From a virus, in the IMG/VR virus record IMGVR_UViG_3300017760_000001, positions 1 through 64,000 of that record: a DNA stretch of 64,000 nucleotides; one strand, given 5' to 3'. The notes under the pieces were generated by a model. That model was given only the letters and a program-made list of their open reading frames with translations, did no database searches and was not told the origin of the DNA. Shown here one piece after another: positions 1 through 64,000 of the stretch (within the stretch, counting starts at the first letter, position 1; each line of letters begins with the position of its first letter). The position numbers and the translations under genes were made by a program.

Positions 1-161
1 AATATTTTTTGATTCCCATTGCCTGGAATTGCCAGATTTTTATAAGGAACATCTAAATGATCAGCAAGTTTTGCGACAACTGTCTTTTCGTGGTGACTGT
101 TATCTATGAATCCTTCTAGTTCATCTCCCCAAACGTAACTACATCCTCCTGCCAGTAACAT
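1..161 (-). CDS. SGNH-hydrolase-like protein (partial, runs off window start)
   Basis: Not in the ORF track. ATG at 161 reads MLLAGGCSYVWGDELEG...YKNLAIPGNGNQKIF, paralogous to 25999..26775 (GCS-x-x-x-G block and later G-x-x-N). Confidence 0.6.
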   Translation of the reverse strand, partial: MLLAGGCSYVWGDELEGFIDNSHHEKTVVAKLADHLDVPYKNLAIPGNGNQKI

Positions 162-163
162 TT

Positions 164-970
164 TTATTTGGCCGTCCTAACTTCTTTGTACCCGAAATCT
201 TTCCAAGGATATAAAGCATCATTATCGGGCGTTTGTTTTCTATCAGTTCTATAGTCATGGTATCTATTAATCTTCGCTCTAGCACCAAAGTTAATAAACC
301 GTCTGAAGTGATCTGTCGGTTTACGAGTTTCCGCCATGTGCCATGCAGTAGGAATATTAGGCCATATAACAAGTCGATTGTTAATGTACTTTATTCTCTT
401 GGATTCTATTGTATCCTTACTCAAATGTAAAGCACTATCGTCCGACTCATCATCGTCTTCCTTCAAGTATAGAAATCCAGAAATCAAAGTCTTACCTTGG
501 TCTAAATGCCATCCAATAGTTTTTTTAGGTTCTTTAAGACTATTGTAAGCACCATAACAAATACTACCACATGTAAAATCAGTATCTTCAAAATTAGGAT
601 AAAAATCAGTAAAAACTGGATTAAACGCCTCTCTCAACATTTTTGTGAAATTTTCGTTATTGAGAAGATTGTCCAGAACACAATCTACAATAAATCTAAA
701 CTTATCGGAAAAAATATCATTACTAACATTAGCGATACGACAATCACCTGCCGATCTATGCGGATTATTCGAATCACGATAAACTTCGAACCTCCAGTAG
801 TCTGGCATATCAACTTTAGAAGCGTAATTCTTTAGATCGTCATTATTTGCGAGAAAATCCAATACGTATTCGTTCGTTATAAAATCATCAATGATAATAT
901 GTGGTGTTGGTTCTAAATATAACTTAGGTTCGATCTTAAACATATTAACCTTCGCAGGCTCTGCACTCAT
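164..970 (-). CDS. 2OG-Fe(II) oxygenase-like protein
   Basis: GWHLD (HxD), distal AWH and RRFIN Arg; AT-rich. Confidence 0.6.
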   Translation of the reverse strand: MSAEPAKVNMFKIEPKLYLEPTPHIIIDDFITNEYVLDFLANNDDLKNYASKVDMPDYWRFEVYRDSNNPHRSAGDCRIANVSNDIFSDKFRFIVDCVLDNLLNNENFTKMLREAFNPVFTDFYPNFEDTDFTCGSICYGAYNSLKEPKKTIGWHLDQGKTLISGFLYLKEDDDESDDSALHLSKDTIESKRIKYINNRLVIWPNIPTAWHMAETRKPTDHFRRFINFGARAKINRYHDYRTDRKQTPDNDALYPWKDFGYKEVRTAK

Positions 971-2933
971 CGTCCTCAGATGATTCGACTATAGTCTTGT
1001 TCATAAAGTTCTGTAGTTCGTCCCACCCACCAACATATTGTCCTTCGATGTAGATCTGCGGTACAGTCTTAACCTTACGACCAGTTACTTCTGCCGCTGT
1101 CTTACCGATGTCTGCGAGGTCAATATAGTCGTATGGAATACCACGTAATTTTAACTCATCTTTTGCCATTTGGCAATAGGGACAATTCTTTTTACCATAA
1201 ACAATAGTACGAGAGTCTTCCGCAAGCGCAACTCGTTCTACTTTCTCCGATACATTCTCTGCACGTTGTTTCGCCTCGGTACGTAGATAGTACAGACCCT
1301 TCAGTCCTTTATCCCATGCACTGTAGTGTACTCGACTCACATAAGACTTCTCTGCACCAGCAGGGAAGAATAGGTTGACACTCTGACCTTGACAGATAAA
1401 CGGTTGACGTTCAGCTGCATGTTGTACTACCCACATCTGATCGAGTTCTTGGGCAGTTCTAAACACTGACTTCTCGCCTTCAGTCAGGAACGGTAAGTGT
1501 TGTACCGATCCTTTGTTTGTGATTATGGATGTCCAATTGGATTCATTGTTTTCACCCTTTTCCTCTAGTAGTTTCGTCAAGTACTTGTTCTTCACAAGGA
1601 ATGAACCAGCACGTGTACGGTGCGTATATGCATTCGCCTTCAACGGTTCAATAGATGGACTCGTTGATAGGATTACTCCGCTTGATGCATTTGGTGCGAT
1701 TGCCATAAGGTGCGAATTTCTTTTGCCTGATCCTTCACCGTCTGGGTACTCTCCTCGTTCATCTGCGAGTTGTTCTGTCTCTGCGTGTGCTCGAGAGTTA
1801 ATTGTTTCGAATACAACTTTATTGATCTCTCTTGCGGTTTCTGACTCCCATGCAACCCCATGTTTCTGGAGGAGTGAATGGAATCCCATAGCGCCGAGAC
1901 CGATCGAACGTTCTCGTGCGGCTGAGTATTTTGCTCTTTCAATCGTGTCTGGAGCGTTGTCGATAAAATACTCAAGGACATTATCAAGCATACGAACAAG
2001 ATCTTGTACAATAGTGGTGTCTTTCCACTCATCATAATACTCCAGATTTAAAGAAGACAAACAACATACGGCAGTACGTTCTGCATCTGTGGGCAAGTGT
2101 ATCTCGTTACATAGGTTAGATCCATGAATCTTTAATCCTTTTTCTTTCAGTGGTTGTGGTAGATCTGCATTCGCAGTATCAATAAAGTTCAGGTAAGGTT
2201 CACCTGTACGGAATCGTGTCTCAAGGATACGTTCCCATAGTTTACGAGCATCGACTGTGTCTTTAACACCGTTGTCCTTTGGATCACGAAGATCAAAAGA
2301 ACTTCCCTGTTTAACTGCCTCCATAAACTCGTCACTAATATTAAGTGCATTGTGGAGGTTCAATGCTTTACGTTGCACATCACCTGTCGGGATACGCATG
2401 TTTAGAAATTCGATAATGTCAGGGTGACTCACGTCCATGTAAGCTGCATACGAACCTTTACGAGTCTTACCTTGACGGTATGCAATCATGTCCGCATCTA
2501 CTGTGTGTAGGAAAGGCATTGGGCCAGGCGCAATGTCCGATACAGTTCTTACAGCAGACCAATGTCCGCCAACACCCCCGCCATAAACAGACAACCAACG
2601 TAACTCGCTGGAATGGCTAATAAGACCCTCAAGACTATCTGGTACATATGTGAGAAAACAAGAGATGGGCATTCCCTTACCTTTTTTCTCTCCGTTGGGA
2701 GCGTTCGATAGTACTGGACTAGCAAACATAAAATACTTATTACTAACGTAATCATAAAGACGTTGAGCAAGGGCATAATCGGTTTCCCCTTTGTATGTTG
2801 CCCATGCAGTAGCTGCACGTGCGTAGGCTTGTTGTGGTGAGTCTTCTTTTTCAGTTAAATAAAAATCTTTCAACATTCCTACTGCGTAATCTGCGAGTAG
2901 TTTATCCATAGATTTATTAATTTTTATTTTCAT
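945..2933 (-). CDS. nrdA: Class I ribonucleotide reductase alpha subunit with fused C-terminal glutaredoxin domain
   Basis: ISCF, SNLCNEI, AVCCL, APNASS, GLYY tyrosine pair, C-terminal CRAC; Grx insert CPYC...TVPQI...VGG; no ATP-cone. Confidence 0.95.
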   Translation of the reverse strand: MKIKINKSMDKLLADYAVGMLKDFYLTEKEDSPQQAYARAATAWATYKGETDYALAQRLYDYVSNKYFMFASPVLSNAPNGEKKGKGMPISCFLTYVPDSLEGLISHSSELRWLSVYGGGVGGHWSAVRTVSDIAPGPMPFLHTVDADMIAYRQGKTRKGSYAAYMDVSHPDIIEFLNMRIPTGDVQRKALNLHNALNISDEFMEAVKQGSSFDLRDPKDNGVKDTVDARKLWERILETRFRTGEPYLNFIDTANADLPQPLKEKGLKIHGSNLCNEIHLPTDAERTAVCCLSSLNLEYYDEWKDTTIVQDLVRMLDNVLEYFIDNAPDTIERAKYSAARERSIGLGAMGFHSLLQKHGVAWESETAREINKVVFETINSRAHAETEQLADERGEYPDGEGSGKRNSHLMAIAPNASSGVILSTSPSIEPLKANAYTHRTRAGSFLVKNKYLTKLLEEKGENNESNWTSIITNKGSVQHLPFLTEGEKSVFRTAQELDQMWVVQHAAERQPFICQGQSVNLFFPAGAEKSYVSRVHYSAWDKGLKGLYYLRTEAKQRAENVSEKVERVALAEDSRTIVYGKKNCPYCQMAKDELKLRGIPYDYIDLADIGKTAAEVTGRKVKTVPQIYIEGQYVGGWDELQNFMNKTIVESSEDDECRACEG

Positions 2934-2943
2934 ATTTTATCCG

Positions 2944-3300
2944 TTATACTGTGGTGTAATTGTAGACTGGTTCGGTCTCGGTAAAGTCAACCTCTTCGAC
3001 CAAAAACTGTTTGCCTGTTTTTTGAAACTCACGAAGAACATTTAACATGTAATCCATCTGTTCATCTTCGTCAAGTAGACCTTCCCACAACATATGATTG
3101 GTCAGGGATTGATCGTAGTTCTCTACAATAAATCTGTGGGGGTGAAGATATTTATCATCGCAACCATCTACAGGCACATAAAACAAACGACTGGTCAGTC
3201 CCATTTGGTCGTATTCATCTTGTTTTTTATGTATCCATTTGGTATCGTCACCTTCGTGGATAAAGATGACCACGTCTCCGTAGTCTACAAATTCTGACAA
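2944..3300 (-). CDS. hypothetical protein
   Basis: 118 aa ORF with AAGGA RBS, downstream of a sigma70 promoter. Confidence 0.6.
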   Translation of the reverse strand: MSEFVDYGDVVIFIHEGDDTKWIHKKQDEYDQMGLTSRLFYVPVDGCDDKYLHPHRFIVENYDQSLTNHMLWEGLLDEDEQMDYMLNVLREFQKTGKQFLVEEVDFTETEPVYNYTTV

Positions 3301-3336
3301 ATTTATATTCCTTCTGTTGGTTTTTATTAGGGGGGT

Positions 3337-3365: not shown

Positions 3366-3810
3366 TAGCCCTTGAACCAAACCAGAAAGAAATAATTGCA
3401 GCAAAGATTGCCTTGGTGTCATCGTCCCATAGGACGTTTAATGCTTCCGACAATTCCGCACCTTTACTGAGAGTGTCATTCAATAGACTGACCTCAATAG
3501 TTACGAACAATGCAAAAAAAGCATATGTGATAACTGGACGAACAGACTTCTGAAGGCCTGCAATGAATCCAGTTGATTTTGAGATTGCGATATCATGATC
3601 GACTAATCGTTGATGTTCTTGATCAGATGCTTGTTGTTCATACATCTTGATGTCTTGATCGAAACCCATCTTGCGGAGTTCCGCCATGTGGGTCATTTCT
3701 TCAAGTTTAAATTTATTCTGTGCCTTTGTCTTAAAGTGATCCATGATGCCCGGCACTACCGATCCACCAAATCCTAAAAGACTACCTAACATTCCACTCA
3801 TCATGGTCAT
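3343..3810 (-). CDS. membrane protein resembling 3TM (GTA-type) holins
   Basis: N-terminal hydrophobic segment, coiled coil, VRPVITY TM segment, C-terminal FWFGSR. Confidence 0.55.
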   Translation of the reverse strand: MTMMSGMLGSLLGFGGSVVPGIMDHFKTKAQNKFKLEEMTHMAELRKMGFDQDIKMYEQQASDQEHQRLVDHDIAISKSTGFIAGLQKSVRPVITYAFFALFVTIEVSLLNDTLSKGAELSEALNVLWDDDTKAIFAAIISFWFGSRAIDKSRSK

Positions 3811-3823
3811 TCACTCCAATTCG

Positions 3824-18502: not shown

Positions 18503-19471
18503 TTAGGCAGCAGTCGCAAATTCCACTGCCTTGTCAACCGCCTTGATCTTACGGTTTTGGTTTGCACCGTACCATGCAGATGTCATACGTGAATCCGCTT
18601 CACGACCCATCACATGATCGGTTAGGTAGGTTACACTGTTCAGTGCCTGCCACCAAGTACCACGTCCAAACTCTGCTCCTGGCTGAGTCTCTAACAACTC
18701 AAATGCCTTTTGACCGTTGGTGGTCAGATCAGAAACATCTTTCACTACAGGTGGGTTCTTACCCTCGTAGGTACGTGGGAATACTTCGTTGTAGTATTGG
18801 ATTAGGTTATCCATAGAGAACTGACGTGAAGACAAGAACTGAGACATCTCTTTGAACTGATCGAACTTCTCGTGTGCCAGACCCATAGTAGTCTTTACAT
18901 GTTCCGCATCGAATACACGGCGGTGGTTCATCTTAACACCATTGACCGCACGACCTTTCAGTGCCATTGTCAAAGTGTTCATACATGATACACGGATTGG
19001 AGTGAATCGAATGTCCACTGACTTACCGTACTCGTGTGGGTTAGAGAACAACAGGTAAGAATCAACCTGATCGCCTTTCAGTACATCGAAAGAGTCGTTG
19101 ATCTTAGCAAGCGCCCATACCATCTTACCACCCTTCAGTGATCCAGCAGTATGCATTTCCATACCACCTTCTAGACAGTACTCATTAAAGAACTCAAACG
19201 CAGTATCGTTTTGTACAGGTTCCCACTTCCCACCGACTTGGGTGAGTACTTTACTATCCGAAGAACGAACGAGTGCTTCCATTCCAGTAGGAACTCTTTC
19301 TCCCTTATAGTCAGCATAGGTCGGAACTTTATCGACAGACCAGTTTAGACCAGCCTTGTCCATCATTTGTTGTGGTGATAGGTCATTGGAAACCTGTGTC
19401 CCGATTTCCCCCCAAGGAGAACGTCCAGCGTATGCCATCGTCTCGATTTGTAACACGTCATTTAAACTCAT
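18503..19471 (-). CDS. DUF932 family (phage/plasmid TIGR03299-like) protein
   Basis: MAYAG..PW, AGLNWSV, PVQN, TAGSLKGG, RVSCMNTL, GTWWQALNSVT. Confidence 0.8.
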   Translation of the reverse strand: MSLNDVLQIETMAYAGRSPWGEIGTQVSNDLSPQQMMDKAGLNWSVDKVPTYADYKGERVPTGMEALVRSSDSKVLTQVGGKWEPVQNDTAFEFFNEYCLEGGMEMHTAGSLKGGKMVWALAKINDSFDVLKGDQVDSYLLFSNPHEYGKSVDIRFTPIRVSCMNTLTMALKGRAVNGVKMNHRRVFDAEHVKTTMGLAHEKFDQFKEMSQFLSSRQFSMDNLIQYYNEVFPRTYEGKNPPVVKDVSDLTTNGQKAFELLETQPGAEFGRGTWWQALNSVTYLTDHVMGREADSRMTSAWYGANQNRKIKAVDKAVEFATAA

Positions 19472-23867: not shown

Positions 23868-24717
23868 TTTCTTCTTCTTCTCCTATGAGGTGACCATCGT
23901 TAGTCCCATCGCTTTGATGAGGGTGTCGATGTCCTTCCCCTACTTTCCAAAGTCCCCTGTCATGACCTTGGTATATTAGTTCAAGCACTCCCGCCTCAAT
24001 TGACGTTCGTACTGCGTATGTCACTGACTCGTTGTTACCAACACCGTCTTCATACTCTACTAGTTGGGTTCCTTGTTCGGTAAATCTAAACACGTCACCC
24101 CCTGTTCCGTAACTAAGAATTGTCTTCTTAGCTTGGACGTTCAACAGTATCTCTCCTGACAAAACTGAAACTGCCCTGATAGAAACTGTCACAACATCTT
24201 TACGGTATTTCCGAGAAAATCCTATTCCCAGTGTTCTCGCACCCTGACCTCCTGTCTCTATATTGGTATCATAACCAATTATACCACCTTCGATAATCAT
24301 CCCAGCAAATAATAACGGGCCTACTCCCTGAGATTCTTCGTCAGCGTATTCTTTTCGGGTACTGCGAATAATCTGTCTTTCTCTGACTAGATGTTCGATA
24401 CCCTGTCTCTCAACCACACGGAACCATGTTCCTCCGCCTGCGGTCTTGAGTGCATCTATTAACATTTCAGTACTACCTTGCGTTACCGCCGTACTGAAGT
24501 CTGCAATACCATCACGTGCCTTACGTTGTCCAGTCAGATCCTTGAATCCATAAACTGCGACAACAGGCATCTGGGTTGCGGGCGGTACATTCAACAACTC
24601 TTGATATGCCGGCAACCTTACCACTTCTGGTTCTGTTATATCGGTTGACCACTCTGGATGAGTCGCACAACCACCAAGAAACAGAATCGGTAGTATCTTA
24701 AATAGGAGGCGCATCAT
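23860..24717 (-). CDS. csgG: curli secretion channel lipoprotein
   Basis: Lipobox LGGC; VAVYGFKDLTGQRK, FSTAVTQG, WFRVVER, ERQIIRS, EGGIIGYD. Confidence 0.93.
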   Translation of the reverse strand: MMRLLFKILPILFLGGCATHPEWSTDITEPEVVRLPAYQELLNVPPATQMPVVAVYGFKDLTGQRKARDGIADFSTAVTQGSTEMLIDALKTAGGGTWFRVVERQGIEHLVRERQIIRSTRKEYADEESQGVGPLLFAGMIIEGGIIGYDTNIETGGQGARTLGIGFSRKYRKDVVTVSIRAVSVLSGEILLNVQAKKTILSYGTGGDVFRFTEQGTQLVEYEDGVGNNESVTYAVRTSIEAGVLELIYQGHDRGLWKVGEGHRHPHQSDGTNDGHLIGEEEENE

Positions 24718-29496: not shown

Positions 29497-30159
29497 CTAT
29501 TCCTCAAGTGCTTTAATTACATCAGGGAAGTGTACACCGATAATTTCCCAACATTGTTTCGCAACGTCCATATGTTCTTTCTGCGTACCGTTACCCATTC
29601 TTAGATCACAATAATGTATCCATGATCTTAATGTTCCTGCCATATACAAAGTCGTCTCGGTGTTACCTTCTGGTAAAACCGCACGTGCCTGTTCTTTAGC
29701 GATACCATTATCTAGTGCCCAGTTATATACTTCTTTGGACTGTTGTAGGAGTTCAGACTGTTTATCTCTCCACTGTTGAGACAACTCTACATTGTCTTCA
29801 GTCAACGCTACTGAGTTCTGTCGATTCTTTAAGTCTTGAAGTCTTGCCTCTCGAAGTTCGAATGATTCACTCTTTGCGTAACGTTGACTGAATTCTTGAA
29901 ATGAGAACGAGCGATGACGGATAATCTGACGAGAGATATCACGTGTGGTTGTTATCTCCAGAGTCAAGTGTACCATCTCCAGAGGTGACCAATGGTTCTC
30001 ACGAATTAAATATCTAACCAACTTGCCGGCCGTCTTGGCGTTATTCTGGTTAGATGGATTACTTACACGAGCCGCATATGCGACCAGTTCTTCTGCGGTA
30101 TGACAACCTGTATCCGCACTTGGTTTACTCAGGGAAATTAATTTTACTTTACTCATCAT
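29497..30159 (-). CDS. thyX: flavin-dependent thymidylate synthase
   Basis: HWSPLE, RQIIRHRSFSFQEFSQRY, EQARAVLP, TQKEH. Confidence 0.95.
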   Translation of the reverse strand: MMSKVKLISLSKPSADTGCHTAEELVAYAARVSNPSNQNNAKTAGKLVRYLIRENHWSPLEMVHLTLEITTTRDISRQIIRHRSFSFQEFSQRYAKSESFELREARLQDLKNRQNSVALTEDNVELSQQWRDKQSELLQQSKEVYNWALDNGIAKEQARAVLPEGNTETTLYMAGTLRSWIHYCDLRMGNGTQKEHMDVAKQCWEIIGVHFPDVIKALEE

Positions 30160-39163: not shown

Positions 39164-40047
39164 TCAATAAAATGAAAATCGCCTTGTCTTTTCCAAGGGC
39201 ATTCGACTTTATCGTCACGGTATGCTTGGTGATGTTGTGTGACTGATTTTTCTCCTAGAGAACGTTTTATCATTTGAGTTGTGGGTCTCATTAAATGTGG
39301 ATTAAAATTGTGGAATCTTTCCTCACCTAGTTGCCTTAAACCACCGGCATTGAAAACATCGAAAATATCATTATCTGTTTTTCCGAATCTCAAACCGTCA
39401 TCTGGTGATAGCGGCCACTCATACTGATCTATATTATGTAAAAATGTATTTTCACTGAGATCATATTCTTTAGTTTTTTCAAACGGTTCTGTAAATTGAG
39501 ATCCTCTCAAGAAAGTTTTGAATAATCTTTCCATACATGCATATGGGCCACCATTTATAGGAAAATCTTTATTCAGTAAAATAGTTGCTTGTTCTGCAAA
39601 AATTCGAGATAAAGAGTAACATCCCATGAAAAGTCCCATATTAGTATAATGTAAATTATAGTCTTCAGATAACTCTAGAATTAATCTAAAAGTCTCTTCT
39701 CGTTCGGGTCTAAGGTAAGTGTCGTGTTCAGTTACGAAAAATGGTTCATCGGTAAGACTACGTTGTCTTATAAGTTCCCAATGAGAACACATACCTGCCC
39801 TTTCGGTTGGTGAGTGTGGTTTGTCAAATTTTTTAGTATTACGTTTACTATCATGTGACAATAAATGTTGCCAGTTGTATTTGGATTCGTGTTCTTCGAA
39901 GTCTGGGTGGTGGGGCGTGATTGCCTCGAATGGTACAATCTCGATTATATCATTGACAGGTTCAAACGACTTTTTAGATAACTCGTGATACTCCATAGAG
40001 ATTGGATTATCGGACATCACGATTTGATAGAACTTTATTTTACTCAT
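39160..40047 (-). CDS. GT25-like glycosyltransferase-like protein
   Basis: FEAITP, ERAGMCSHWEL, VTEHD; AT-rich. Confidence 0.5.
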   Translation of the reverse strand: MSKIKFYQIVMSDNPISMEYHELSKKSFEPVNDIIEIVPFEAITPHHPDFEEHESKYNWQHLLSHDSKRNTKKFDKPHSPTERAGMCSHWELIRQRSLTDEPFFVTEHDTYLRPEREETFRLILELSEDYNLHYTNMGLFMGCYSLSRIFAEQATILLNKDFPINGGPYACMERLFKTFLRGSQFTEPFEKTKEYDLSENTFLHNIDQYEWPLSPDDGLRFGKTDNDIFDVFNAGGLRQLGEERFHNFNPHLMRPTTQMIKRSLGEKSVTQHHQAYRDDKVECPWKRQGDFHFID

Positions 40048-41700: not shown

Positions 41701-42064
41701 CTTTATTCACCTTATTTTTTATTATGTTAAGTTGATCGGTAGATAAGAGAGGTAGGATTTGAATGGCCTTTTCATTACTATATCCATAATACTCTTTTAT
41801 CACGTCAACGTTACTATCAGTTGTGGGTTTGACCCATTTGGAAAACCGTTTCTTTTTCCTAACTATATTTAGTAAAAACTGAAATTGTAACTTTTTGTCA
41901 AGGTGATGGTATCTGTTCATCTCATTCGCCATATGAACAGTGTCAGTGAAGTAAGATAGACTGCGATTGACCATGAACGGAACATACTTCTTCTCCATGT
42001 CGGGGTCAACCATCACGTCCTTCTTACCGAATGTAATCTCATTTACAAATTGAAATGGACTCAT
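41687..42064 (-). CDS. gp62: clamp loader small subunit (T4 gp62)
   Basis: YVPFMVNRSLS, ANEMN, RKKKRFSKW, YYGYSNEKA. Confidence 0.92.
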   Translation of the reverse strand: MSPFQFVNEITFGKKDVMVDPDMEKKYVPFMVNRSLSYFTDTVHMANEMNRYHHLDKKLQFQFLLNIVRKKKRFSKWVKPTTDSNVDVIKEYYGYSNEKAIQILPLLSTDQLNIIKNKVNKGGRK

Positions 42065-42492
42065 ATTTGTTCTATCTCCATGCCACATTTTTCTAAGAAC
42101 TCTAGTCCATCGGTAGATCTTAGGTGTGGTGTTCTCCAGTATACTTTCTTGATACCAGATTGATATATTAGTTTAGCGCACTCCAAACAGGGTGCGGTCG
42201 TTGTGTATATGTCAGCATTATAACATGATTCGGAACTTTTTGCAACCTTTGTTATTGCATTCGCCTCTGCATGTAATACTTCTGGTTTGGTTTCAAGGAA
42301 CTGAATGTCACCATTAGGCCACTTCAGTTCGTTCTCACAGTTGTTATCCCAACCAGAGGGCATACCATTATACCCAATAGAGATGATACGATTATCTTTT
42401 ACAATAACCGCACCAACTTTTAATCTTCTTGCACTAGAGAGTTTCGCAAATGTTTCTGCGGTCTCCATAAATGCATTTTCCCATTTATCCAT
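42061..42492 (-). CDS. dCMP deaminase
   Basis: GYNGMPSG, HAEANA, PCLECAK. Confidence 0.92.
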   Translation of the reverse strand: MDKWENAFMETAETFAKLSSARRLKVGAVIVKDNRIISIGYNGMPSGWDNNCENELKWPNGDIQFLETKPEVLHAEANAITKVAKSSESCYNADIYTTTAPCLECAKLIYQSGIKKVYWRTPHLRSTDGLEFLEKCGMEIEQI

Positions 42493-53618: not shown

Positions 53619-54749
53619 ATGATTTTAGAACATAAAGATGCGTTATACGCAGCCAATGCTTTTGATGAGTTCTTCGGGAACATCGAACGTATTGATGAAT
53701 ACATGAGACAGGTCAAGATGGAACGTATGGAATCCTTTCCGTACTCTCTGCCTGGCATGGGGCCAGAAGAAGATCTGTTCAGCAACTTCGATATCCATCC
53801 GTCAGAGATGGAGTTTGTAATACAAGAATCGCCCGCAAATCAATTCATGTCCTATATGGAAATTGTTACGTCCGCACCTGTGGAGGCATCGATCCCAGGC
53901 AAGGGATTGAAGTGGGTGATCAAAGAAAAGAACACTAACAAAGTTATCGGTATGATTCGTTTCGGGTCTCCTACTATTAATAGTAAACCACGGAACGAAT
54001 GGTTAGGACGACCACTAGACAGTATGAATCCAGAGGTTATGAAAAGGTTCAACGACTCCGCAATCATGGGGTTCAACATTGTACCTACTCAACCGTTTGG
54101 ATACAACTATCTTGGTGGTAAGTTACTGGCCGCAATATGTTGTTCCCACTACACACGTGAAGCATTGAACAAGAAGTATGATAGTAACTTCTGTATGTTC
54201 GAGACCACTTCGTTATACGGATCAACTAAGTCTGCTTCGCAATACGATGGTATGAAACCATTCTTGCGATTCAACGGTTTGACAGACTCAAACTTCTTAC
54301 CACTTATCAATGACGACACTTACCGCAGACTAAGTGCATGGTTCATTGAGAAAAACGGTGGTGAACCCTTGGTTCCTGTTGACGCCTCATCTCGTAAACT
54401 AAAAACACAAACCAAGATGGCATCTATCATCAAAGCCTCTCTCAAAGTTCATGATGAAGTTGCCTACAAGAAGTTCTGTCAAACCTACTCTAATGCAAAG
54501 GATCTGACCGAACAGAAACGTTCGTTCGTGTCCACATATGGTTACGAGAATGTACCCCAGTACTTGAACCTAGAAACAGATACATTGATCAAGAAAGAGA
54601 ACTTTGACAGATTCTCTCTTGAGGGTGTTACCGCATGGTGGCGTAAGAATGCCGTCAAACGTTATGACAAACTCAAGAGTGAAGGTCGTCTGAGACGTAC
54701 CGTGGAGACTTGGAACGTCAATGCAGACGATATCGATATTATAAGATAA
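53619..54749 (+). CDS. DUF4338/DruA-like protein
   Basis: IVPTQPFGYNYLGGKLLA, FETTSLYG, SQYDG. Confidence 0.6.
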   Translation: MILEHKDALYAANAFDEFFGNIERIDEYMRQVKMERMESFPYSLPGMGPEEDLFSNFDIHPSEMEFVIQESPANQFMSYMEIVTSAPVEASIPGKGLKWVIKEKNTNKVIGMIRFGSPTINSKPRNEWLGRPLDSMNPEVMKRFNDSAIMGFNIVPTQPFGYNYLGGKLLAAICCSHYTREALNKKYDSNFCMFETTSLYGSTKSASQYDGMKPFLRFNGLTDSNFLPLINDDTYRRLSAWFIEKNGGEPLVPVDASSRKLKTQTKMASIIKASLKVHDEVAYKKFCQTYSNAKDLTEQKRSFVSTYGYENVPQYLNLETDTLIKKENFDRFSLEGVTAWWRKNAVKRYDKLKSEGRLRRTVETWNVNADDIDIIR

Positions 54750-54817
54750 GATTCTTATATATAATAGTAAGGCATTCATACCGAATGTCAAAAATAAAAT
54801 AATCTAAGGAGATTATA

Positions 54818-55810
54818 ATGATTACTAGTAACACTAAATTTAGTGGCGTTTCTGGCGCACTATCAAATCTTAAAGGTGAACGTGTATCCATTCAGGAAGT
54901 CATCGACACCGTCCTACAAATCACCAACATGAAATCAAAGACATTGGCTGACATGAAGACCAATGCATCTTACAATCCATCTGAAGTTGGTGTAGTTCCT
55001 TTAAATTCTCTTTATGTTGATATGACCTATCAACGTATCATTCGTCTTCAGAAGTTGATCAACAAACTTCGAAAGTTGGGCGGGTTTGACATGTACTCTG
55101 CTGGCGTTGTTGATATTGCGATACGACCTAGTGGTGACAGTTATGTATGGGACGGTCTAAGACGTTGCATCATGGCTGGACTATGTGGATTGACTCACGT
55201 GAAGTCATCTCAGTTCGTACATCCAATGAACGCCTCCAATGAAGATTGTCAAAAACAAGAGGCAAGATATTTCAAGTCTCGTAATGCAGACCAAGAAAGT
55301 ATGAAGGCAGAAGAAATATTTAAATCAGAAGTTGTTTATGGTGACCCGAAAGCACTAGAACTTTTGAGACTAATTAAAAACTGTAGACTCGACATCGAAG
55401 GATTAAATCCAGGCGGCCGAATTTTCGGTGGGTTTGTCGAGGTACGTGACAATTACTTCAAGAAAGATAAAATAGAAGACGAGTATTTTATTGAAGCGTC
55501 AAGTATTATTCAAAACATTTATCCTAAAGAAGTTATCTCTGGTTACTTGTTGACTGGTCTTGCGTATCTTTTAACTAAGAACGAAGATTCAGATATATCT
55601 TACTCAGCCGAAGAACTGGTAGAAGCTTTACGTAATTACGCATCAGTCAATCAGAAACAAACAGATCTGATCCGTGGTAGACTGGCAGGAAACGCAAGAG
55701 GTAGTATCGCTTACCTAATCGCAAGACGTGTACTAAGAGATAACAACGGACTTATCAATTCTATTGGATTAGATGAAGAATCTATGAATTTAGTTGACGA
55801 AGCGGCTTGA
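54818..55810 (+). CDS. ParB/Srx-like (DGQHR-type) domain protein
   Basis: VDMTYQR, VWDGLRR, EARYF. Confidence 0.55.
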   Translation: MITSNTKFSGVSGALSNLKGERVSIQEVIDTVLQITNMKSKTLADMKTNASYNPSEVGVVPLNSLYVDMTYQRIIRLQKLINKLRKLGGFDMYSAGVVDIAIRPSGDSYVWDGLRRCIMAGLCGLTHVKSSQFVHPMNASNEDCQKQEARYFKSRNADQESMKAEEIFKSEVVYGDPKALELLRLIKNCRLDIEGLNPGGRIFGGFVEVRDNYFKKDKIEDEYFIEASSIIQNIYPKEVISGYLLTGLAYLLTKNEDSDISYSAEELVEALRNYASVNQKQTDLIRGRLAGNARGSIAYLIARRVLRDNNGLINSIGLDEESMNLVDEAA

Positions 55811-55836
55811 CATTGACCTAAGAGTTGTGGTATAAT
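55807..55836 (+). promoter_or_regulatory. sigma70-type promoter for the tRNA
   Basis: TTGACA-18-TATAAT with TGG before the -10. Confidence 0.75.
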
Positions 55837-55849
55837 ATACCCATATTAT

Positions 55850-55921
55850 GCGGAATTAGTATAATGATTACATTAGGTGTCCAACCTAAAGATGGAGGTT
55901 CAAGTCCTCTGTTCCGCTCCA
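55850..55921 (+). tRNA. tRNA-Gly(UCC), atypical (G33, short D-loop)
   Basis: Acceptor GCGGAAT/GTTCCGC, U73, encoded CCA; anticodon arm TTAGG-TGTCCAA-CCTAA; T arm GGAGG-TTCAAGT-CCTCT. Confidence 0.85.
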
Positions 55922-57378: not shown

Positions 57379-58419
57379 TTACTTAATAGTTTTCTTGATT
57401 GCGTTAACATACTGTTCCATCGCACTAGAAACTTCAACCGTTTGGTCTACGTCTTCAGCAACAACTTCAACTTCTTCGTTAGCGCTTGGTTCTTTTGAGA
57501 AGTGAGATTCGATTACAATACCAACTTTTTTGGCGAAGGTTTCTTCGTCATCAAAATCAATACTTTCTACAAGTCCTTTTAACTTCTCTACTTGTGTTTC
57601 AGCAAGACCACGAGCAGATTCAGCGATGATTGCTTCACGCTTCAGTACTTCGAGTTCTTCACTTAATTTAATTGCATCACCAACCTGACTGTTCAATTTC
57701 TCTTCCAGTTCAGATACTTGTTCTGCTAATTCGTCAACTAGGTCAACTTTGGATTCAGGAACATCGATATAAGACTCTGTAAACAGATCCTTCATTTTGT
57801 CCATGAAAGTTTCTGCGATTTCAGTACGTAGACCGTTCTGTACCGCTACTTTGTTTTCTTCCATCCAAGATTCAACTACGTAGTTTAAGTAAGAATCTAC
57901 TTTCTCAACAAGATCAGTCTTGATAGACGATACTTCTTCAGATAGTTCTTCTTTGTACTGTGACTCTAAACGATCTACTTCTTCAGATAGTTTAGATTTA
58001 ACAGCGGCTTCAAAAATTACAGCAGTTTTTTCTTTGAACTCTTCAGAAAGAGTTGCTTCAGATTCTACCAACTTATCCAACTCGGAAGTTGTGTCGATAG
58101 TTTCTGCAACAGTCTCTCCAGCTACTTCTAGGTCTTCACCCATCAACTTGCCGTATGATGCTTGTAGGTCTACTTTCTTCATAGAATTAAGTTTACCATA
58201 CATTGCACTAATCATACCAGCTTTAGTCTTAGGTACAGGTGCCTGTTTAGTAGCGTCAGCAGCCTTATCCACAGATGCGATAGACTCTGGTTCCGTTACA
58301 GGAGCAGCGTCTGCCTTACCTTTGGCAGTAGGTGCTTGTGCTTCTTCGAGAGTTTCCTCCACGATTTCGTTATCAATTTCATCGTGAAGTTCTACTTCGA
58401 CTTTAGTTTCATCAGTCAT
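57379..58419 (-). CDS. gp22: prohead core scaffold (T4 gp22)
   Basis: LSEEFKEKTAVIFEAAV, VDSYLNYVVESW; acidic coiled coil. Confidence 0.92.
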   Translation of the reverse strand: MTDETKVEVELHDEIDNEIVEETLEEAQAPTAKGKADAAPVTEPESIASVDKAADATKQAPVPKTKAGMISAMYGKLNSMKKVDLQASYGKLMGEDLEVAGETVAETIDTTSELDKLVESEATLSEEFKEKTAVIFEAAVKSKLSEEVDRLESQYKEELSEEVSSIKTDLVEKVDSYLNYVVESWMEENKVAVQNGLRTEIAETFMDKMKDLFTESYIDVPESKVDLVDELAEQVSELEEKLNSQVGDAIKLSEELEVLKREAIIAESARGLAETQVEKLKGLVESIDFDDEETFAKKVGIVIESHFSKEPSANEEVEVVAEDVDQTVEVSSAMEQYVNAIKKTIK

Positions 58420-58429
58420 TAGAGACTCC

Positions 58430-59089
58430 TTACATACTAGATTTGATTAACGAGAGGAAATTCTTAAACTCCCGAATCTGCACTTCTGGACGAAATGCTT
58501 TCGGAGCGGTTTTAATTTCAGTCTCAATATCTTCAATTATTTGGGGTTCCAAAATGCCGTTATTCCAAACCCAATCTACACCTTCCATGATTCCATTGAC
58601 AAAAGCGTCAGGTGCTGAGGGGTCTTGCACGATATCTACCGTGTTAAGAATAAAGTCGTCTTTGACGTACATTGCGCCATTTTTTTGTTCCAAACTTCCC
58701 ATTCCACGAGTTGACACTCCTAGTTGTACACCACCATCAAGGAGACCTTTAACAATCTTACCCATTGGAGTATCCAATATTTGTGCCTTTCCGACCACAT
58801 CATTTCCCTCAAACTTGAGGTCTGTGATGAGATGCGAAACTTTGTCTAAGTTAACAGTAGGCCCTTCAGGATGATTCAATTCACCCACGGCACGTTTCTT
58901 GCTAACTTGTTCTGTAACGTACTTATTTACCGCAGATTCCATAATTGGTTTCGGGTAGATACGTCCGTTTCTATTCTTTGATTCTGTTTGAATGAAGATT
59001 CCTTCAATGACGTAGTTCTTCTCGCCATTCTCTTTCTTCTCTACAATGCACTGTAGATTATCTTCTTTGAATTCACTAATTAACTTCAT
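58430..59089 (-). CDS. gp21: prohead protease (T4 gp21)
   Basis: KNRNGRIYP, GELNHP, GVSTRGMGS, DIVQDPSAPDA. Confidence 0.96.
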   Translation of the reverse strand: MKLISEFKEDNLQCIVEKKENGEKNYVIEGIFIQTESKNRNGRIYPKPIMESAVNKYVTEQVSKKRAVGELNHPEGPTVNLDKVSHLITDLKFEGNDVVGKAQILDTPMGKIVKGLLDGGVQLGVSTRGMGSLEQKNGAMYVKDDFILNTVDIVQDPSAPDAFVNGIMEGVDWVWNNGILEPQIIEDIETEIKTAPKAFRPEVQIREFKNFLSLIKSSM

Positions 59090-59316
59090 TTGAGTTTACC
59101 ACCTAGTGATTTTAATGTAGTTTTCAATGTCTTCATTGCTAACGCCTGAGTTTTGAAAACGTCTAATTTGTCACCATCAATATACACACAGAAACCTTTT
59201 GGTTCCTTTACGATGGCGACTGGTACTTTAACAGATCCAGTTGACTTTGCCGAATACACGACATCACCCTTATACTTGGGTTTTGCTTTCTCTCGAATCT
59301 GTTTAAATGTTTTCAC
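59086..59316 (-). CDS. small prohead core/internal protein (gp68-like position)
   Basis: MKTFKQIRE N-terminus; lies between gp67-like and gp21. Confidence 0.55.
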   Translation of the reverse strand: MKTFKQIREKAKPKYKGDVVYSAKSTGSVKVPVAIVKEPKGFCVYIDGDKLDVFKTQALAMKTLKTTLKSLGGKLK

Positions 59317-59343
59317 TATAAGTTTTTTCCTTATTCGTACTTT

Positions 59344-59351
59344 TATTTATA
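59344..59351 (-). promoter_or_regulatory. T4 late promoter
   Basis: TATAAATA upstream of the 68/21/22/23 unit. Confidence 0.8.
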
Positions 59352-59380
59352 CAAAAAAAGTTTTTTAGATGAAATTATTA

Positions 59381-59749
59381 TTAAGAAAATTCTTCTTCAG
59401 ATTCTACTTCAACTTCAGGTTCTTCTTCGACCTCTTCTACCTCGATATCCTCTTCAGATTCAACCTCAGTTTCTTCTTCATCTTCAAAGTCAACCTCAAG
59501 TTCGAAATCTTCAACATCGATGTCTTCACCGTTGTTGTTGAAGATATTTGCGGCTACATTTACCTTCTCTGCTTCCAACGCATCTTGCATCTTACTACCC
59601 AACATGTCATTGAATAGGTCGCCTGCTTTGTTGTAGTTGGTCGCTTGAATTGCATCCACGAAGTTATCGAGGTTTAACTCCATCTGTGTCTTTTCAACTT
59701 CAGGTACTTCTACTTCAGCTGTTTCTGTTTCACTCATGATTTTCTCCAA
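59381..59749 (-). CDS. acidic prohead core protein (gp67-like)
   Basis: Follows the portal gene; Glu-rich tail. Confidence 0.6.
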   Translation of the reverse strand: MEKIMSETETAEVEVPEVEKTQMELNLDNFVDAIQATNYNKAGDLFNDMLGSKMQDALEAEKVNVAANIFNNNGEDIDVEDFELEVDFEDEEETEVESEEDIEVEEVEEEPEVEVESEEEFS

Positions 59750-61258
59750 TTAAAATTCTTCGTCTTCATTACCTGTTTCTGCATTGGCTTCGGTTGCGAT
59801 TTGTTTCAGGATATTCTCAACCTCATCCTCTTGCATTTGTAATACATTTTTCCAAACCCATTCTTTAGAAAAGTACTCACCAACATATTGAGATACTTGA
59901 TCCATAGTCTGTAGACGTTCACGTAGAACCTCTGCTTCTTTGAGTTCAGAGAAGTGGTTGTCACGGATAAAGTCAACCGTGACATCATTCTTCCACTCTT
60001 CCCAATCCTGTTCAGTGATAATACCTTTGAGGATTAGTTGTTTCTTTAGAATATGTAGGAACAGATTAGAGAAACGTTTTCTCAGTCTGTCAATAAACTT
60101 CTGGAACTTAACTTCGTCTCGGTTGATCTCTGTTGCACGACCCAAAGAGAACTGTGCCTCTTGTTCTAGACGTGAAAGAGGTACGTTCAACGCACGATAC
60201 AATCTCTTCTGGAAGTAGATGATATCATCAATCTGTCCAAGGTTCTCACCGCCAGGCAGTGTAGAGATCTCTGTACCACGACCACCTTCTTTACGTGGTA
60301 ACCAGAAGTCTTCCAACATAGACATATGTTTACGGTCATCTTTCAATTGACCTGTGTTCGCATCGTAGACCAACTTGTTACGATAACGAGACATGATGTC
60401 TTTCATGTGTTTCTCTGCCTTCTGTGTAGGCAAGTTACCGACATCTATGTAAAAGATTCTACGTTCAGGCGCACGTGCGAGACGGTAGATTACCAACGAA
60501 TCTTCCATCATACGCAATTGGTTAATTGGTTTGATTGCCTTGTGTAGGAAAGATACTACACGTTTTCTAGAAGGATCTAATAGACCAGATGTAACATAGG
60601 ATACTGAATCTGGACTTAGTCTAACACCAGACTGCGCTCCTGCTTTCTCTTGATAGATATAGAACTCATCTGTTCTATCTACAATTTTTGCGCCTGTCTT
60701 AGGATCTTTCTTATACTTAACTTCTCGAACCTTACGCATTTTAGCTGCATCAATGGGACGAATCTCTTGGATACCCATCTTTGCGTTTGACTCGTTCACG
60801 ACCAAGTGATGGTACAAACGACCATCTACATACCATGAACGGAAAATATCGTGACCTAATTCGTTGAAGTTCAACATACCACATATGGCATCAAACTCTT
60901 CAACCATTAGTTTTTTGATTTTGTCTGATGTCTTAACGTTATCGAGATCGAGTTCTACAGGTGCTTCCATTTCGGAACCAGACACCGACTCGTTTACAAT
61001 ATCTTCGATAGCTGCATCGACTTCAGGATGTTGTGCAACACCCCTATACTTTTGAATCTGTTGGGTATTATCCTTCGCATCCGCACCATCCATATCGATG
61101 TACGAACCAAAGTGTGACCCTGAGGCTGTGACGTATCCAGCACCATCGGGATCTGCCGTTGGTACAATAGACTGAAGTTTTTCCTTTTCTTTCGGTTGGT
61201 TTGTTGTTCTTTTGATCTCAAATCCAAAGAGTTTTAAACCGTTATTCTCGTCCGCCAT
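59750..61258 (-). CDS. gp20: portal vertex protein (T4 gp20)
   Basis: WYVDGR, YRLARAPERRIFYIDVGNLP, MLEDFWLPR.EGGRGTEISTLPGG. Confidence 0.97.
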   Translation of the reverse strand: MADENNGLKLFGFEIKRTTNQPKEKEKLQSIVPTADPDGAGYVTASGSHFGSYIDMDGADAKDNTQQIQKYRGVAQHPEVDAAIEDIVNESVSGSEMEAPVELDLDNVKTSDKIKKLMVEEFDAICGMLNFNELGHDIFRSWYVDGRLYHHLVVNESNAKMGIQEIRPIDAAKMRKVREVKYKKDPKTGAKIVDRTDEFYIYQEKAGAQSGVRLSPDSVSYVTSGLLDPSRKRVVSFLHKAIKPINQLRMMEDSLVIYRLARAPERRIFYIDVGNLPTQKAEKHMKDIMSRYRNKLVYDANTGQLKDDRKHMSMLEDFWLPRKEGGRGTEISTLPGGENLGQIDDIIYFQKRLYRALNVPLSRLEQEAQFSLGRATEINRDEVKFQKFIDRLRKRFSNLFLHILKKQLILKGIITEQDWEEWKNDVTVDFIRDNHFSELKEAEVLRERLQTMDQVSQYVGEYFSKEWVWKNVLQMQEDEVENILKQIATEANAETGNEDEEF

Positions 61259-61290
61259 TTAAATTCCTCAAAACCTTAATAGTAAAATGA

Positions 61291-61326
61291 AAGGGGGAAA
61301 ATCCCCCCTTCCATTCATTACTTATA
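61291..61326 (-). promoter_or_regulatory. late-promoter variant plus hairpin between gp19 and gp20
   Basis: TATAAGTA (61319-61326) followed by a GGGGGA/TCCCCC stem with short U tract. Confidence 0.5.
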
Positions 61327-61332
61327 CTAGAA

Positions 61333-61860
61333 TTAACTAGTAGTATTTGACTCCCAGTATTGGATAGCAAATTCTACAGTAAATTCTTCGATTGCATCAT
61401 TAGTCTCGTAAGACAATGCAATCTCCCCTACGTTAACAGGGAAACAACCACGGAAGTTGTATGTTTTCAATACATCTCCATTGCGGTCAAGTTGATCAAC
61501 GGATAGATCCGCTTCGTAATCTACAGGGTTAGACAAACCAGTATTCGCAGCGTGTGCGTTGATACCGTTCATCCAACGTTCCATAGCATCACGAACACTG
61601 AAATCAGTATCGTTGATGATTGTTACAGTCCAGTTCTGGAAGGTACGATCGCCAGCAATCTTCAATTGGCGTCCACGGAACGGTACGTTTACCAATGCCA
61701 TTTCTGACACAGGTAACTGCGCTGTCTTACACAAGAATGATGATAGTTCTACATCACCACCAGCATAAGCAGGGAAGTTCAATGTTGCCTTGAAGAGATT
61801 GGGGCGTGCGCCTCCACCACGGAGTTTTGACTTAAAGTCATCTACACCTAATACAGCCAT
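61333..61860 (-). CDS. gp19: tail tube protein (T4 gp19)
   Basis: GGARPNLF, FRGRQLKIAGDRTF..WTVTIIND, IEEFTVEF. Confidence 0.96.
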   Translation of the reverse strand: MAVLGVDDFKSKLRGGGARPNLFKATLNFPAYAGGDVELSSFLCKTAQLPVSEMALVNVPFRGRQLKIAGDRTFQNWTVTIINDTDFSVRDAMERWMNGINAHAANTGLSNPVDYEADLSVDQLDRNGDVLKTYNFRGCFPVNVGEIALSYETNDAIEEFTVEFAIQYWESNTTS

Positions 61861-61873
61861 TTTCTATCTCCTC

Positions 61874-63691
61874 TTATACCGTGCCAACTACTTCTTCAAA
61901 CTCAACACCAGTTCTAACTGCAACGAAGTTCAACGTTACGAAGTTAATAGAACGAGCGGGTTTGATGAAGATTGAAGCGATAAATTCATTTCTATCAATG
62001 ACTGCTGGTGTGTTATTTGTTTCGTCACAAACGACACGGAAGTCAGTGATACCTCTTCGACCCTGTACTTCACGAAGTAAAGGTTCTACGATGTTTGTAA
62101 ATTCAGCACGAGTAAACTCATCATTGAACTCAAACATTACGTTCTTAGCAGCTAAGGCGATTTGTCTTTCTAGTACAAGGAACAATCTACGAACGTTGAT
62201 TCGGTCGAATGCACTTGGACGACTTTCGAAAGTTTTATCACCAAATAGGATAACACCACTGCCTGGAATATTGGCGATTGGGTTAATGCCTGCTTTATAC
62301 AGAGTATCTCTCTCTGATTTGTTAGGGTTAGATAAAATGTCTGTTACACCCAAGTAGTTACCTCGTCTCTGACCAGCAGGAGAGAACCAAGGTGCAGCTA
62401 CTGCATCAGTACCAGCGAATAGACCAGCAGTTGATGAGTTAGCAGGGATGTTAACATACACATCGTTGTACTTGTCATATACCTTCAAGAAGTTATTATC
62501 AACAACTAGGTATGATGATCGGGTACAACCACTCGCAAACGAAGTAGTGCCAGTTACAGGAGTTGATCCTGTGATAGCAGCTCTATCGGGGGAAGTAGTT
62601 ACAACACAATCTTGACGACCTTTAGCGATAGAAACAAGATCATTTACAACGGTGTTACCGTCAGTCTTGTTAGGATGCAAAGGTGCGATTAACATATCGA
62701 CTTGTACAGTTTCAGTATCTTCGAACAGATCAAAACCAGTAGCGTATTCAGAAGTGCCGATAGCACCACCGTCTGTACCACCACCTAGTTTAACCTTAGA
62801 CTTAGCGTCACTCCAATCAGTACCACCTTGTGACGGTATGAAAGCGTGAGAGTAGTCTTCAGCTGAATCAACAGTAGGTTCTGCGCCAAACTTTGCTGCG
62901 AAGTTATTGTGAGTTGATCCAAACGCAGAGTCATCCCCAAAGTATGGGTTATAGACATAGTTAGACTGATTGTTGATTACGTCACTGATGTAGTTCGGTG
63001 CGCCGTCTGTAGACTTAGCGCCTTTCAACATAGATACATGTGGGAAAGTTTCAAGAACTGTACCAACAGTACCAGAGATAGCACCAGTACGGTCAACTAC
63101 CGCAACGTGTATCTCATCGTTAGCACCACTAGAGTTTAGGTTTGACAGGTGAGGTGAAGTGCCTGGAGCCTGATCAAACTGACCAGCATAAGACCATGCA
63201 TCAAAGAAGTCAGCACTAGTGTCTGAATCTGTACCAGCAGGACAGAATGATACTTCAATAGCATCACCTAAAGCACCAGCGTATCTAGATACAAATGATC
63301 CAGTTTTGTTGGTGTTAGCGGTTCCTAATGTCAGTGTGTCGAAATGTGATTTATTCTTAATTAATACTTGTTCACCATCAGACTCTTGATAAGATTCTAA
63401 TATGTAAGAAGACGAGGAATTAACTGCGCCGTCGCCCACTTCACGAACAACGTAGAGTGAACTTGAGTATCGTAAGAAAGAAGCTGCGGACAAAAAGTCC
63501 ACATTATTTGATGTGTCGGGTGAGCCAAAGACACTAACTAGACCAGTTTCATCTGCTACTAGTGTGCGTTCTTGTACAGGCCCCCAACGAAAATTCCCTA
63601 CAAAGGCGCCAGTTGATGACGTAACACTGGGTACTACACCAGTGAGATCAATCTCTTTGACTACAATTGCGGGAGAAGCTGATGTTGCCAT
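61874..63691 (-). CDS. gp18: tail sheath protein (T4 gp18)
   Basis: SPAIVVKEID, FRWGP, PWFSPAG, FDRINVRRLF, IKPARSINF. Confidence 0.97.
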   Translation of the reverse strand: MATSASPAIVVKEIDLTGVVPSVTSSTGAFVGNFRWGPVQERTLVADETGLVSVFGSPDTSNNVDFLSAASFLRYSSSLYVVREVGDGAVNSSSSYILESYQESDGEQVLIKNKSHFDTLTLGTANTNKTGSFVSRYAGALGDAIEVSFCPAGTDSDTSADFFDAWSYAGQFDQAPGTSPHLSNLNSSGANDEIHVAVVDRTGAISGTVGTVLETFPHVSMLKGAKSTDGAPNYISDVINNQSNYVYNPYFGDDSAFGSTHNNFAAKFGAEPTVDSAEDYSHAFIPSQGGTDWSDAKSKVKLGGGTDGGAIGTSEYATGFDLFEDTETVQVDMLIAPLHPNKTDGNTVVNDLVSIAKGRQDCVVTTSPDRAAITGSTPVTGTTSFASGCTRSSYLVVDNNFLKVYDKYNDVYVNIPANSSTAGLFAGTDAVAAPWFSPAGQRRGNYLGVTDILSNPNKSERDTLYKAGINPIANIPGSGVILFGDKTFESRPSAFDRINVRRLFLVLERQIALAAKNVMFEFNDEFTRAEFTNIVEPLLREVQGRRGITDFRVVCDETNNTPAVIDRNEFIASIFIKPARSINFVTLNFVAVRTGVEFEEVVGTV

Positions 63692-63758
63692 AACTTTTTC
63701 CTTTTTATCGGTTGCGAATTATAAGTGTACATTATACGGATTTTTTCTTCAATACCTT

Positions 63759-63766
63759 TATTTATA
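63759..63766 (-). promoter_or_regulatory. T4 late promoter for gp18
   Basis: TATAAATA. Confidence 0.8.
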
Positions 63767-63778
63767 CTTTAAAGATTT

Positions 63779-64000
63779 TCAGTCCCATTCGTGTACACCT
63801 ACCTCACCTTGTAAACGTTCTAACCACTCTGTCATATCTTCGTCTGGTCGCATCTGTTGTTCTTCCATTTCGATGTGTTCTGATCCATCATCAATGAATC
63901 CAGCTGGAGGCACATCATTCTCGATTGCCAACATCTTCTCTTCAAACATCATCTGTTTGAGGTTGATATCTGTCATGTCAGCAAAGAACTGAGTTGATAC
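63779..64000 (-). CDS. gp17: terminase large subunit C-terminus (partial)
   Basis: Frame open to the window edge; ...FFADMTD...IENDVPPAGFIDDG tail; directly upstream of gp18. Confidence 0.7.
   Translation of the reverse strand, partial: VSTQFFADMTDINLKQMMFEEKMLAIENDVPPAGFIDDGSEHIEMEEQQMRPDEDMTEWLERLQGEVGVHEWD

Follow-up and report, generated by a model that had tools for sequence, protein, structure and literature searches.

The first 64 kb of the IMG/VR virus record IMGVR_UViG_3300017760_000001, a stretch of 64,000 nucleotides referred to here as the window, belong to a T4-like phage of the Kyanoviridae type (G000; 144,435 bp, with 123-bp direct terminal repeats and a completeness rating of 100%). 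In this genome, a series of otherwise avoided palindromic sites survives only where a 5' G or a 3' C overlaps the core of the site and so forms a GpC dinucleotide, and among marine phages this footprint co-occurs with the gene for one protein, termed protein A, and with a gene for tRNA-Gly. The preferred explanation, to which a probability of roughly 0.6 is assigned, is that a GpC-directed DNA modification, most likely written by protein A, a Mom-like GNAT, shields sites that are otherwise purged. Sites are called flanked when such a G or C is present, unflanked CCWGG and CCGG are written HCCWGGD and HCCGGD, and phages encoding protein A are called carriers.

Flank-dependent survival of avoided sites

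All sites in the window were counted exhaustively and compared with a synonymous-codon shuffle of 150 replicates. The window contains 25 CCNGG sites (24 CCWGG and one CCSGG), each of them present as GCCNGG or CCNGGC, and four CCGG sites, all flanked. The unflanked forms are absent, with HCCNGGD observed 0 times against 58.3 expected (shuffle minimum 47) and HCCGGD 0 times against 47.3. GGWCC is likewise missing (0 versus 43.3 expected), GGSCC occurs 20 times (17 expected), GATC and GGATCC are present in 368 and 3 copies, and the GpC dinucleotide is reduced to 1806 copies from an expected 2169.

These counts bear out an earlier sequence-only reading of the window, which had proposed from a partial scan that CCNGG and CCGG occur only with an overlapping GpC, had seen no GGWCC and had noted the presence of GATC and GGATCC; its countable claims are all correct. 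The CCGG sites it had placed near 3750, 24609 and 30026 do touch a GC, a fourth at 39344 that it had not listed is also flanked, and the junctions it had quoted near 18680, 34030 and 40868 are found as written on the minus strand at 18678, 34030 and 40866. It had also called for a comparison with a codon-preserving shuffle, in which the unflanked sites stand at 0 and not near their expected frequency. Its third site class, GGNCC, was counted correctly but says nothing about GpC, because a GpC can never overlap GGWCC and is built into every GGSCC, which makes the observation equivalent to avoidance of GGWCC.

The same pattern extends over the complete genome, for which expected counts also come from synonymous-codon shuffles. 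All 63 CCWGG sites are flanked (HCCWGGD 0 observed versus 93.4 expected), as are all nine CCGG sites (HCCGGD 0 versus 99.1), and CCGG as a whole is reduced to 9 copies from 143 expected. The doubly flanked form GCCWGGC lies above expectation (14 versus 2.1) and GCCGGC matches it (4 versus 4.1), while CCGG with a single flank is rarer than expected (5 versus 40). Several other sites are purged, including GGWCC (0 versus 91), CGCG (0 versus 162), CGWCG (3 versus 150), GGTACC (0 versus 29.5) and GWGCWC (1 versus 53.5), so that palindromic sites fall far below the codon-preserving expectation. The loss of GGWCC, CGCG, CGWCG and GGTACC resembles classical restriction-site avoidance, from which the present case differs in that the avoidance depends on the flank and is relaxed at GpC-centred sites in related phages. 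GpC itself is depleted across the genome (rho 0.68; 3906 observed versus 4594 in shuffles), and an excess of GT/AC, as a trace of deamination at modified GpC, is not significant.

The flank rule is shared by other avoided sites, namely CCATGG (7/7 flanked), CTGCAG (6/6), CTCGAG (4/4), CYCGRG (5/5), CGWCG (3/3) and CTTAAG (1/1), and the sole exception among avoided palindromes starting with C is CGTACG, with one of three copies flanked. For CATG, CTAG, CAATTG, CACGTG, CATATG and CGATCG, which the genome does not avoid, flank frequencies equal the null. The flank contexts observed are GCC, GCT and a few GCG. A single flank requirement common to six unrelated site types points to a shield on the DNA and not to odd specificities of the enzymes. 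The purging of CGCG, CGWCG, GGTACC and GWGCWC, the depletion of GpC and the extension of the rule to other palindromes had all escaped the sequence-only reading.

Codon choice carries the same signal. Nearly every surviving CCNGG in the genome is an in-frame Pro-Gly junction (63 junctions, 65 sites), and all 63 of these junctions are flanked, in agreement with what had been noticed for the subset traced by hand in the window. Where the codon before Pro does not end in G, Gly is encoded by GGC in 30 of 30 cases, for which the chance is about 5e-35 given that GGC makes up 12.9% of all Gly codons in the genome. Gly-Pro junctions use GGC or GGG in 43 of 43 cases (chance about 1e-29), which extends to the whole genome a second regularity traced earlier by hand. 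Synonymous codon choice at Pro-Gly junctions therefore reflects selection.

Two narrower versions of a shield were rejected. A shield specific for GGCC is not supported, since the -2 base before GCC is not enriched in G, and an adenine target of the Mu type fits the flanks of 19 of the 24 CCWGG sites in the window and cannot cover CCGG or GGCC.

Two further compositional features of the genome were recorded. GATC is commoner than expected (791 versus 640) and is absent from two relatives in the same clade (L008 and L039), which indicates that GATC avoidance switches on and off inside the clade. GCTTA and TAAGC are avoided in a strand-asymmetric manner (8 and 25 copies, with about 70 expected for each), and no palindromic restriction site accounts for this.

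The protein A locus and its distribution

The sequence-only reading had remarked that no C5-methyltransferase is visible in the window. This is correct in that PF00145 is without match, but the implied lack of a writer is wrong in effect, as a Mom-like GNAT gene and a tRNA-Gly gene occupy positions 53619-55921 (Table 1). Protein A matches PF14236 (E 4.3e-11; score 42.9 bits, cut-off 27 bits) and thus belongs to the DruA/DUF4338 family, a domain that has been interpreted as a GNAT by the Aravind group (PMC10853773). Its AlphaFold model (pLDDT 92.8, from a 43-sequence alignment) adopts a GNAT fold according to Foldseek, with match probabilities of about 1.0, and gives VIA-align Z scores of 9-10 against many GNATs. 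The top VIA-align match is Mom of phage Mu (PDB 8bv8_B; Z 10.1, root-mean-square deviation 3.7, 168 of 202 residues), which also gives the longest alignment, with SpeG and other GNATs within 1 Z. Conserved columns in the family include S117, R125, S176, T196-S198, S207, Y209 and R348; the catalytic residues of Mu Mom are R111, S124, D149 and R151 in Mom numbering. The family comprises more than 6,700 metagenome proteins and is also encoded by cultured cyanomyoviruses and by a SAR11 phage.

Table 1. Features in the 64,000-nucleotide window, with positions counted from its first nucleotide
Feature	Position	Strand	Evidence or context
Protein A, 376 aa, DruA/DUF4338-family GNAT (phrog_19197), candidate GpC-context writer	53619..54749	+	Pfam, model, distribution
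Protein B, 330 aa, weakly ParB-like	54818..55810	+	phrog_2558 at 2e-12; phrog_1033 (ParB-like) at 3.5e-4
tRNA-Gly(TCC), sole tRNA gene of the genome	55850..55921	+	ARAGORN
CCGG survivor	3750..3753		cCCGGc, 3' C flank
CCGG survivor	24609..24612		gCCGGc, flanked on both sides
CCGG survivor	30026..30029		gCCGGc, flanked on both sides
CCGG survivor	39344..39347		aCCGGc, 3' C flank
Sole CGWCG of the window	63430..63434		CGTCGc, 3' C flank
Genome-wide compositional footprint	1..64000		Avoided C-starting palindromes kept only if flanked; GGWCC and CGCG absent; GpC depleted
JmjC/cupin-like protein, 179 aa	40754..41293	-	PF08007, E 8e-8
dCMP deaminase	42061..42492	-	PF00383; between clamp-loader genes

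Mu Mom is itself a GNAT, which moves glycine from Gly-tRNA to the N6 of adenine in double-stranded DNA at SAS sites (PMC13219725). Protein A resembles it in its fold, in being encoded by a phage, in its genomic link to tRNA-Gly and in the presumed outcome, in which recognition of a short, degenerate sequence protects against many type II enzymes. The two differ in that no sequence similarity is detectable between them, in size (376 aa versus about 230 aa for Mom), in the extra N- and C-terminal helical parts of protein A, and in the apparent target, since the footprint indicates GpC, and there is no adenine in CCGG, GGCC or GCCGGC. A target at adenine N6 in SAS is also at odds with the need for a -1 G or a +1 C in the footprint: if SAS were recognised as in Mu, the CAG in the centre of CCWGG would shield all of these sites regardless of flank, which is not what is observed. 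With DruA of the type I Druantia system, protein A shares Pfam membership above the curated cut-off, but it sits in a lytic phage, comes without DruB-E and has an apparent counter-defence role. A homologue in cyanophage S-SCSM2R carries the annotation 'mom', with an adenine target assumed (PMC12801897).

Protein B, which may be an accessory DNA-binding partner, is adjacent to protein A in the genome under study and in its relative G001; the pairing is not conserved elsewhere, and protein B is absent from the loci L002, L005 and L007. The tRNA-Gly gene adjoins the gene for protein A in these three loci, lies 3 kb from it in S-SSM7, and is the only tRNA gene both in the present genome and in the SAR11 phage HTVC008M. 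In a set of 23 related phages, represented by whole genomes or 120-kb samples, tRNA-Gly occurs in 9 of 12 carriers and 2 of 11 non-carriers (Fisher p 0.012). HTVC008M (W02) has two DruA-family genes, at 86386-86916 and 99535-100659.

IMG/VR relatives of the genome were retrieved through the capsid gene, and among them the absence of HCCWGGD, the absence of GGWCC and low GpC coincide in one clade, within which avoidance of CGCG, CCGG and GATC varies. All large records with the flank rule encode protein A (G000, G001 of 151 kb, G002 and G011-G013), and the large records without the rule do not (G006 of 152 kb and G007-G010). CCNGG is flanked at 77 of 77 sites in G001. Protein A is the only product of an open reading frame of the genome that is present in G001, missing from G006 and common to the distant marine carriers. 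On a portal and capsid tree, HTVC008M branches first, followed by G006, the present genome, and then G001 with C48C1, the latter being the closest GenBank relative (capsid gene about 78% identical at the nucleotide level). psbA (PF00124) was not found in the present genome, G001, G006, C48C1 or HTVC008M, so the clade, although it groups with cyanophages, probably infects a marine heterotrophic bacterium. As an observation in its own right, G006 (L095-L102), a non-carrier, avoids CCGG but spares it within TCCGGA (28 of 46 copies), a different flank-specific survival.

Protein A is found in 31 GenBank records. In carriers that avoid CCGG, 96 of 98 CCGG sites are flanked, with 32/32 in S-PRM1, 28/28 in S-CAM9, 12/12 in DSL-LC02, 6/6 in S-CREM1, 9/11 in S-T4 and 9/9 in the present genome; in three of these the CCGG count is neutral and the survivors are flanked. 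In HTVC008M, where CCGG is not depleted, 41 of 51 are flanked, and in S-SSM7 the same is true of 196 of 206 CCWGG sites. Eight marine cyanophages without protein A contain 0-1 CCGG per 120 kb; non-carriers purge this site altogether and avoid GGCC and AGCT as well. When close-type carriers are compared with non-carriers, the ratio of observed to expected is 0.96 versus 0.41 for AGCT (p 0.0025), 0.92 versus 0.70 for TGCA (p 0.009) and 0.98 versus 0.40 for GGCC (p 0.012), where the Mann-Whitney p-values overstate independence because the carriers fall into few lineages. These three, each of them GpC-centred, are the only ones of the sixteen 4-bp palindromes that differ at p<0.02.

A second comparison used 80 IMG/VR loci fetched through protein A, of which 69 have at least three CCWGG sites, together with 53 control loci. 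The strict CCWGG rule holds in 36 of the 69 loci, whose 193 sites include no unflanked copy, and in none of the 53 controls, and the median GpC rho is 0.74 in loci encoding protein A compared with 1.08 in controls. The inference of a GpC shield is strengthened by the recurrence of the rule on at least six cores, by its tracking of a phage gene across lineages and by the relief of GGCC, AGCT and TGCA in carriers only. This part of the sequence-only reading is thus supported, and more strongly so with the comparative data, whereas the enzymology it had attached, a C5-methyltransferase with TET, is not.

The latter conclusion follows from a Pfam search of the complete genome, as the sequence-only reading had recommended, in which PF00145, PF01555, PF02086, PF12851, PF01702 and PF06508 were all without match (cut-offs E <= 0.01 for PF00145 and E <= 0.1 for PF12851, PF01702 and PF06508). 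The enzyme classes searched for and not found are C5-methyltransferase, N4/N6 methyltransferase, D12 methyltransferase, TET/JBP, TGT/DpdA and QueC. Control genomes match PF00145 (nine genomes), PF01702 and PF06508; the sole control match to PF12851 fell under the cut-off. PF00145 is also not found in G001, S-SSM7, S-PRM1 and HTVC008M. A GpC target and the expected protection at GGCC, AGCT and GpC-overlapped sites are shared with M.CviPI-type C5 methylation and with phage methyltransferase/TET systems, but without a C5-methyltransferase or TET/JBP domain in the genome the chemistry must differ from both.

Points against a protein A shield and competing explanations

Several observations weigh against protein A as the writer of a GpC shield. 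Within the genome, CGCG (0 copies), GWGCWC (1) and GTGCAC (0) are purged although each contains a GpC, which implies that a shield is either limited by context (GC not before G) or ineffective against the enzymes concerned. The structural Z of protein A to Mom ties with that to ordinary GNATs, and protein and profile searches against PDB sequences gave no sequence-level match between the two. When the loci encoding protein A are pooled, CCGG gives a mixed picture (35% flanked), and only the per-locus view of CCWGG is clean; about half of these loci are without the rule, mostly ones in which CCWGG is not avoided, and a few retain unflanked CCGG despite CCGG depletion. Carriers of a divergent protein A subtype that lack tRNA-Gly (S-SM2, S-B68 and S-SRM01) show no clear rule, and the carriers as a whole represent about 3-4 independent lineages on the portal and capsid tree.

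Two phages without protein A show part of the footprint. S-SSM5 (L203-L208) has 57 of 138 CCWGG sites flanked (null 22%, p 2e-7), a weaker enrichment. C48C1 has neither protein A nor a DruA-family gene and still has 69 of 88 CCWGG sites flanked. It is the sister of the carrier G001, which has the cassette of proteins A and B beside its DNA polymerase gene (57389-59650), whereas C48C1 lacks the cassette and encodes a D12 N6-adenine methyltransferase on the opposite side of the polymerase gene (L001, 33480-34364). This methyltransferase was rejected as a shared writer, being an N6-adenine enzyme with no homologue in the present genome. The footprint in C48C1 fits a ghost left by recent loss or module swap, although another writer may act in this phage.

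In the explanation that ranks next after the preferred one, the GpC modification is real but has another writer, and protein A is a co-travelling marker or acts on another substrate. The writer would then be either a host enzyme or a phage protein that has gone unrecognised, such as the JmjC-like protein of Table 1 or an enzyme from a glycan cluster of 20 kb that lies outside the window. C48C1 keeps its partial rule without protein A and shares clade-specific genes, including that for the JmjC-like protein, with the present genome and G001, and protein A resembles Mom in fold only. These clade-specific genes are, however, missing from S-SSM7, S-PRM1, S-CAM9, S-T4 and HTVC008M, all of which show the rule, and protein A alone fits the distribution; a host writer is disfavoured because carriers and non-carriers have been isolated on the same strains (WH7803, WH8109 and WH8102). 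A different writer is accordingly judged unlikely, though it deserves to be kept in view. The JmjC/cupin-like protein, which may hydroxylate nucleic acids or proteins, is present in the genome under study, G001 and C48C1 and is not found in G006 or the cyanophages.

Considerably less probable is the absence of any modification, with several host restriction enzymes whose recognition excludes a 5' G and a 3' C (HCCWGGD, HCCGGD) and a phage that avoids these longer sites. A symmetric 7-bp site would yield the identical logic by which either flank rescues, and the TCCGGA survivors of G006 show that other flank-specific survival exists. Such an account needs at least six unrelated enzymes with the same flank exclusion (for CCWGG, CCGG, CCATGG, CTGCAG, CYCGRG and CGWCG), and it leaves unexplained the neutrality of GGCC, AGCT and TGCA being confined to carriers, the purging of flanked CCGG in same-host phages without protein A, and the GpC depletion of carriers.

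A GpC-specific C5-methyltransferase followed by TET and a glycosyltransferase would have a precedent in known methyltransferase/TET systems of phages, and a DpdA-type transglycosylase inserting preQ0 at GC would have one in known DpdA motifs, GGC among them (an example of a deazaguanine motif is given in PMC10484667). Neither the hypermodification pair (PF00145 and PF12851) nor the 7-deazaguanine (DpdA/Que) families (PF01702 and PF06508), however, have a match in this 100%-complete genome while the controls do match, bar the PF12851 limit noted above, and this is the least probable of the explanations.

Proposed mechanism and significance

In the mechanism proposed for a shield written by protein A, the phage would modify its own DNA at GpC steps after replication. 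The adduct would lie on the outer C:G pair in GCCWGG, GCCGG, GCCATGG, GCTGCAG and GCTCGAG and on the central pair in GGCC and AGCT. Host restriction enzymes would be unable to cut the shielded copies, so that selection would have cleared all copies without the shield. At sites that the encoded protein makes unavoidable, such as the CCNGG of Pro-Gly, selection would have fixed a synonymous preceding G or following C. GpC is self-complementary, and a single flank would therefore mark the outer C:G pair on one strand; this appears to be enough for CCWGG, with both flanks preferred for CCGG in the present genome. As to the target context, the footprint makes a C or T after GC certain; a following A is likely and a following G is doubtful.

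By analogy with Mu Mom, protein A would take glycine from Gly-tRNA, for which the adjacent phage tRNA-Gly is presumed to be a partial source, and would attach it to an exocyclic amino group on a base of duplex DNA. The target atom is most probably cytosine N4 in GpC, with guanine N2 as the alternative. Cytosine N4 is the atom used in cyanobacterial GGCC methylation. The computed adduct load is 13.6% of cytosines if all GpC are modified and 5.2% if only GCY are. In its most specific form, the proposal is that an abundant marine phage GNAT family uses tRNA to aminoacylate GpC at cytosine N4 or guanine N2, with a glycyl or carbamoylmethyl group, on about 5-14% of cytosines, making GpC-overlapped sites resistant to host enzymes and shaping both GpC content and Pro-Gly codons; this version is tentative, a serious possibility that falls somewhat short of even odds.

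Mom-like genes in cyanophages and the chemistry of Mom are already known. The papers that could be searched contained no report of a GpC-specific target, a flank-dependent footprint, a link to the family of protein A or an association with tRNA-Gly, and no biochemical function of DruA.

If the proposal is true, Mom-type tRNA-dependent modification would be in wide use among ocean phages, directed at a base and a sequence different from those in Mu. The flank-dependent survival of sites would serve as a sequence-only read-out of the target motif, and it would explain an odd codon choice, in which Gly after Pro is GGC unless the codon before Pro ends in G. The phages S-SSM7, S-PRM1, S-CAM9, S-T4, DSL-LC02 and HTVC008M are predicted to be resistant to HaeIII, AluI and MspI. 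Beyond these phages, the finding would offer a clue to what the DruA/DUF4338 domain does in Druantia.

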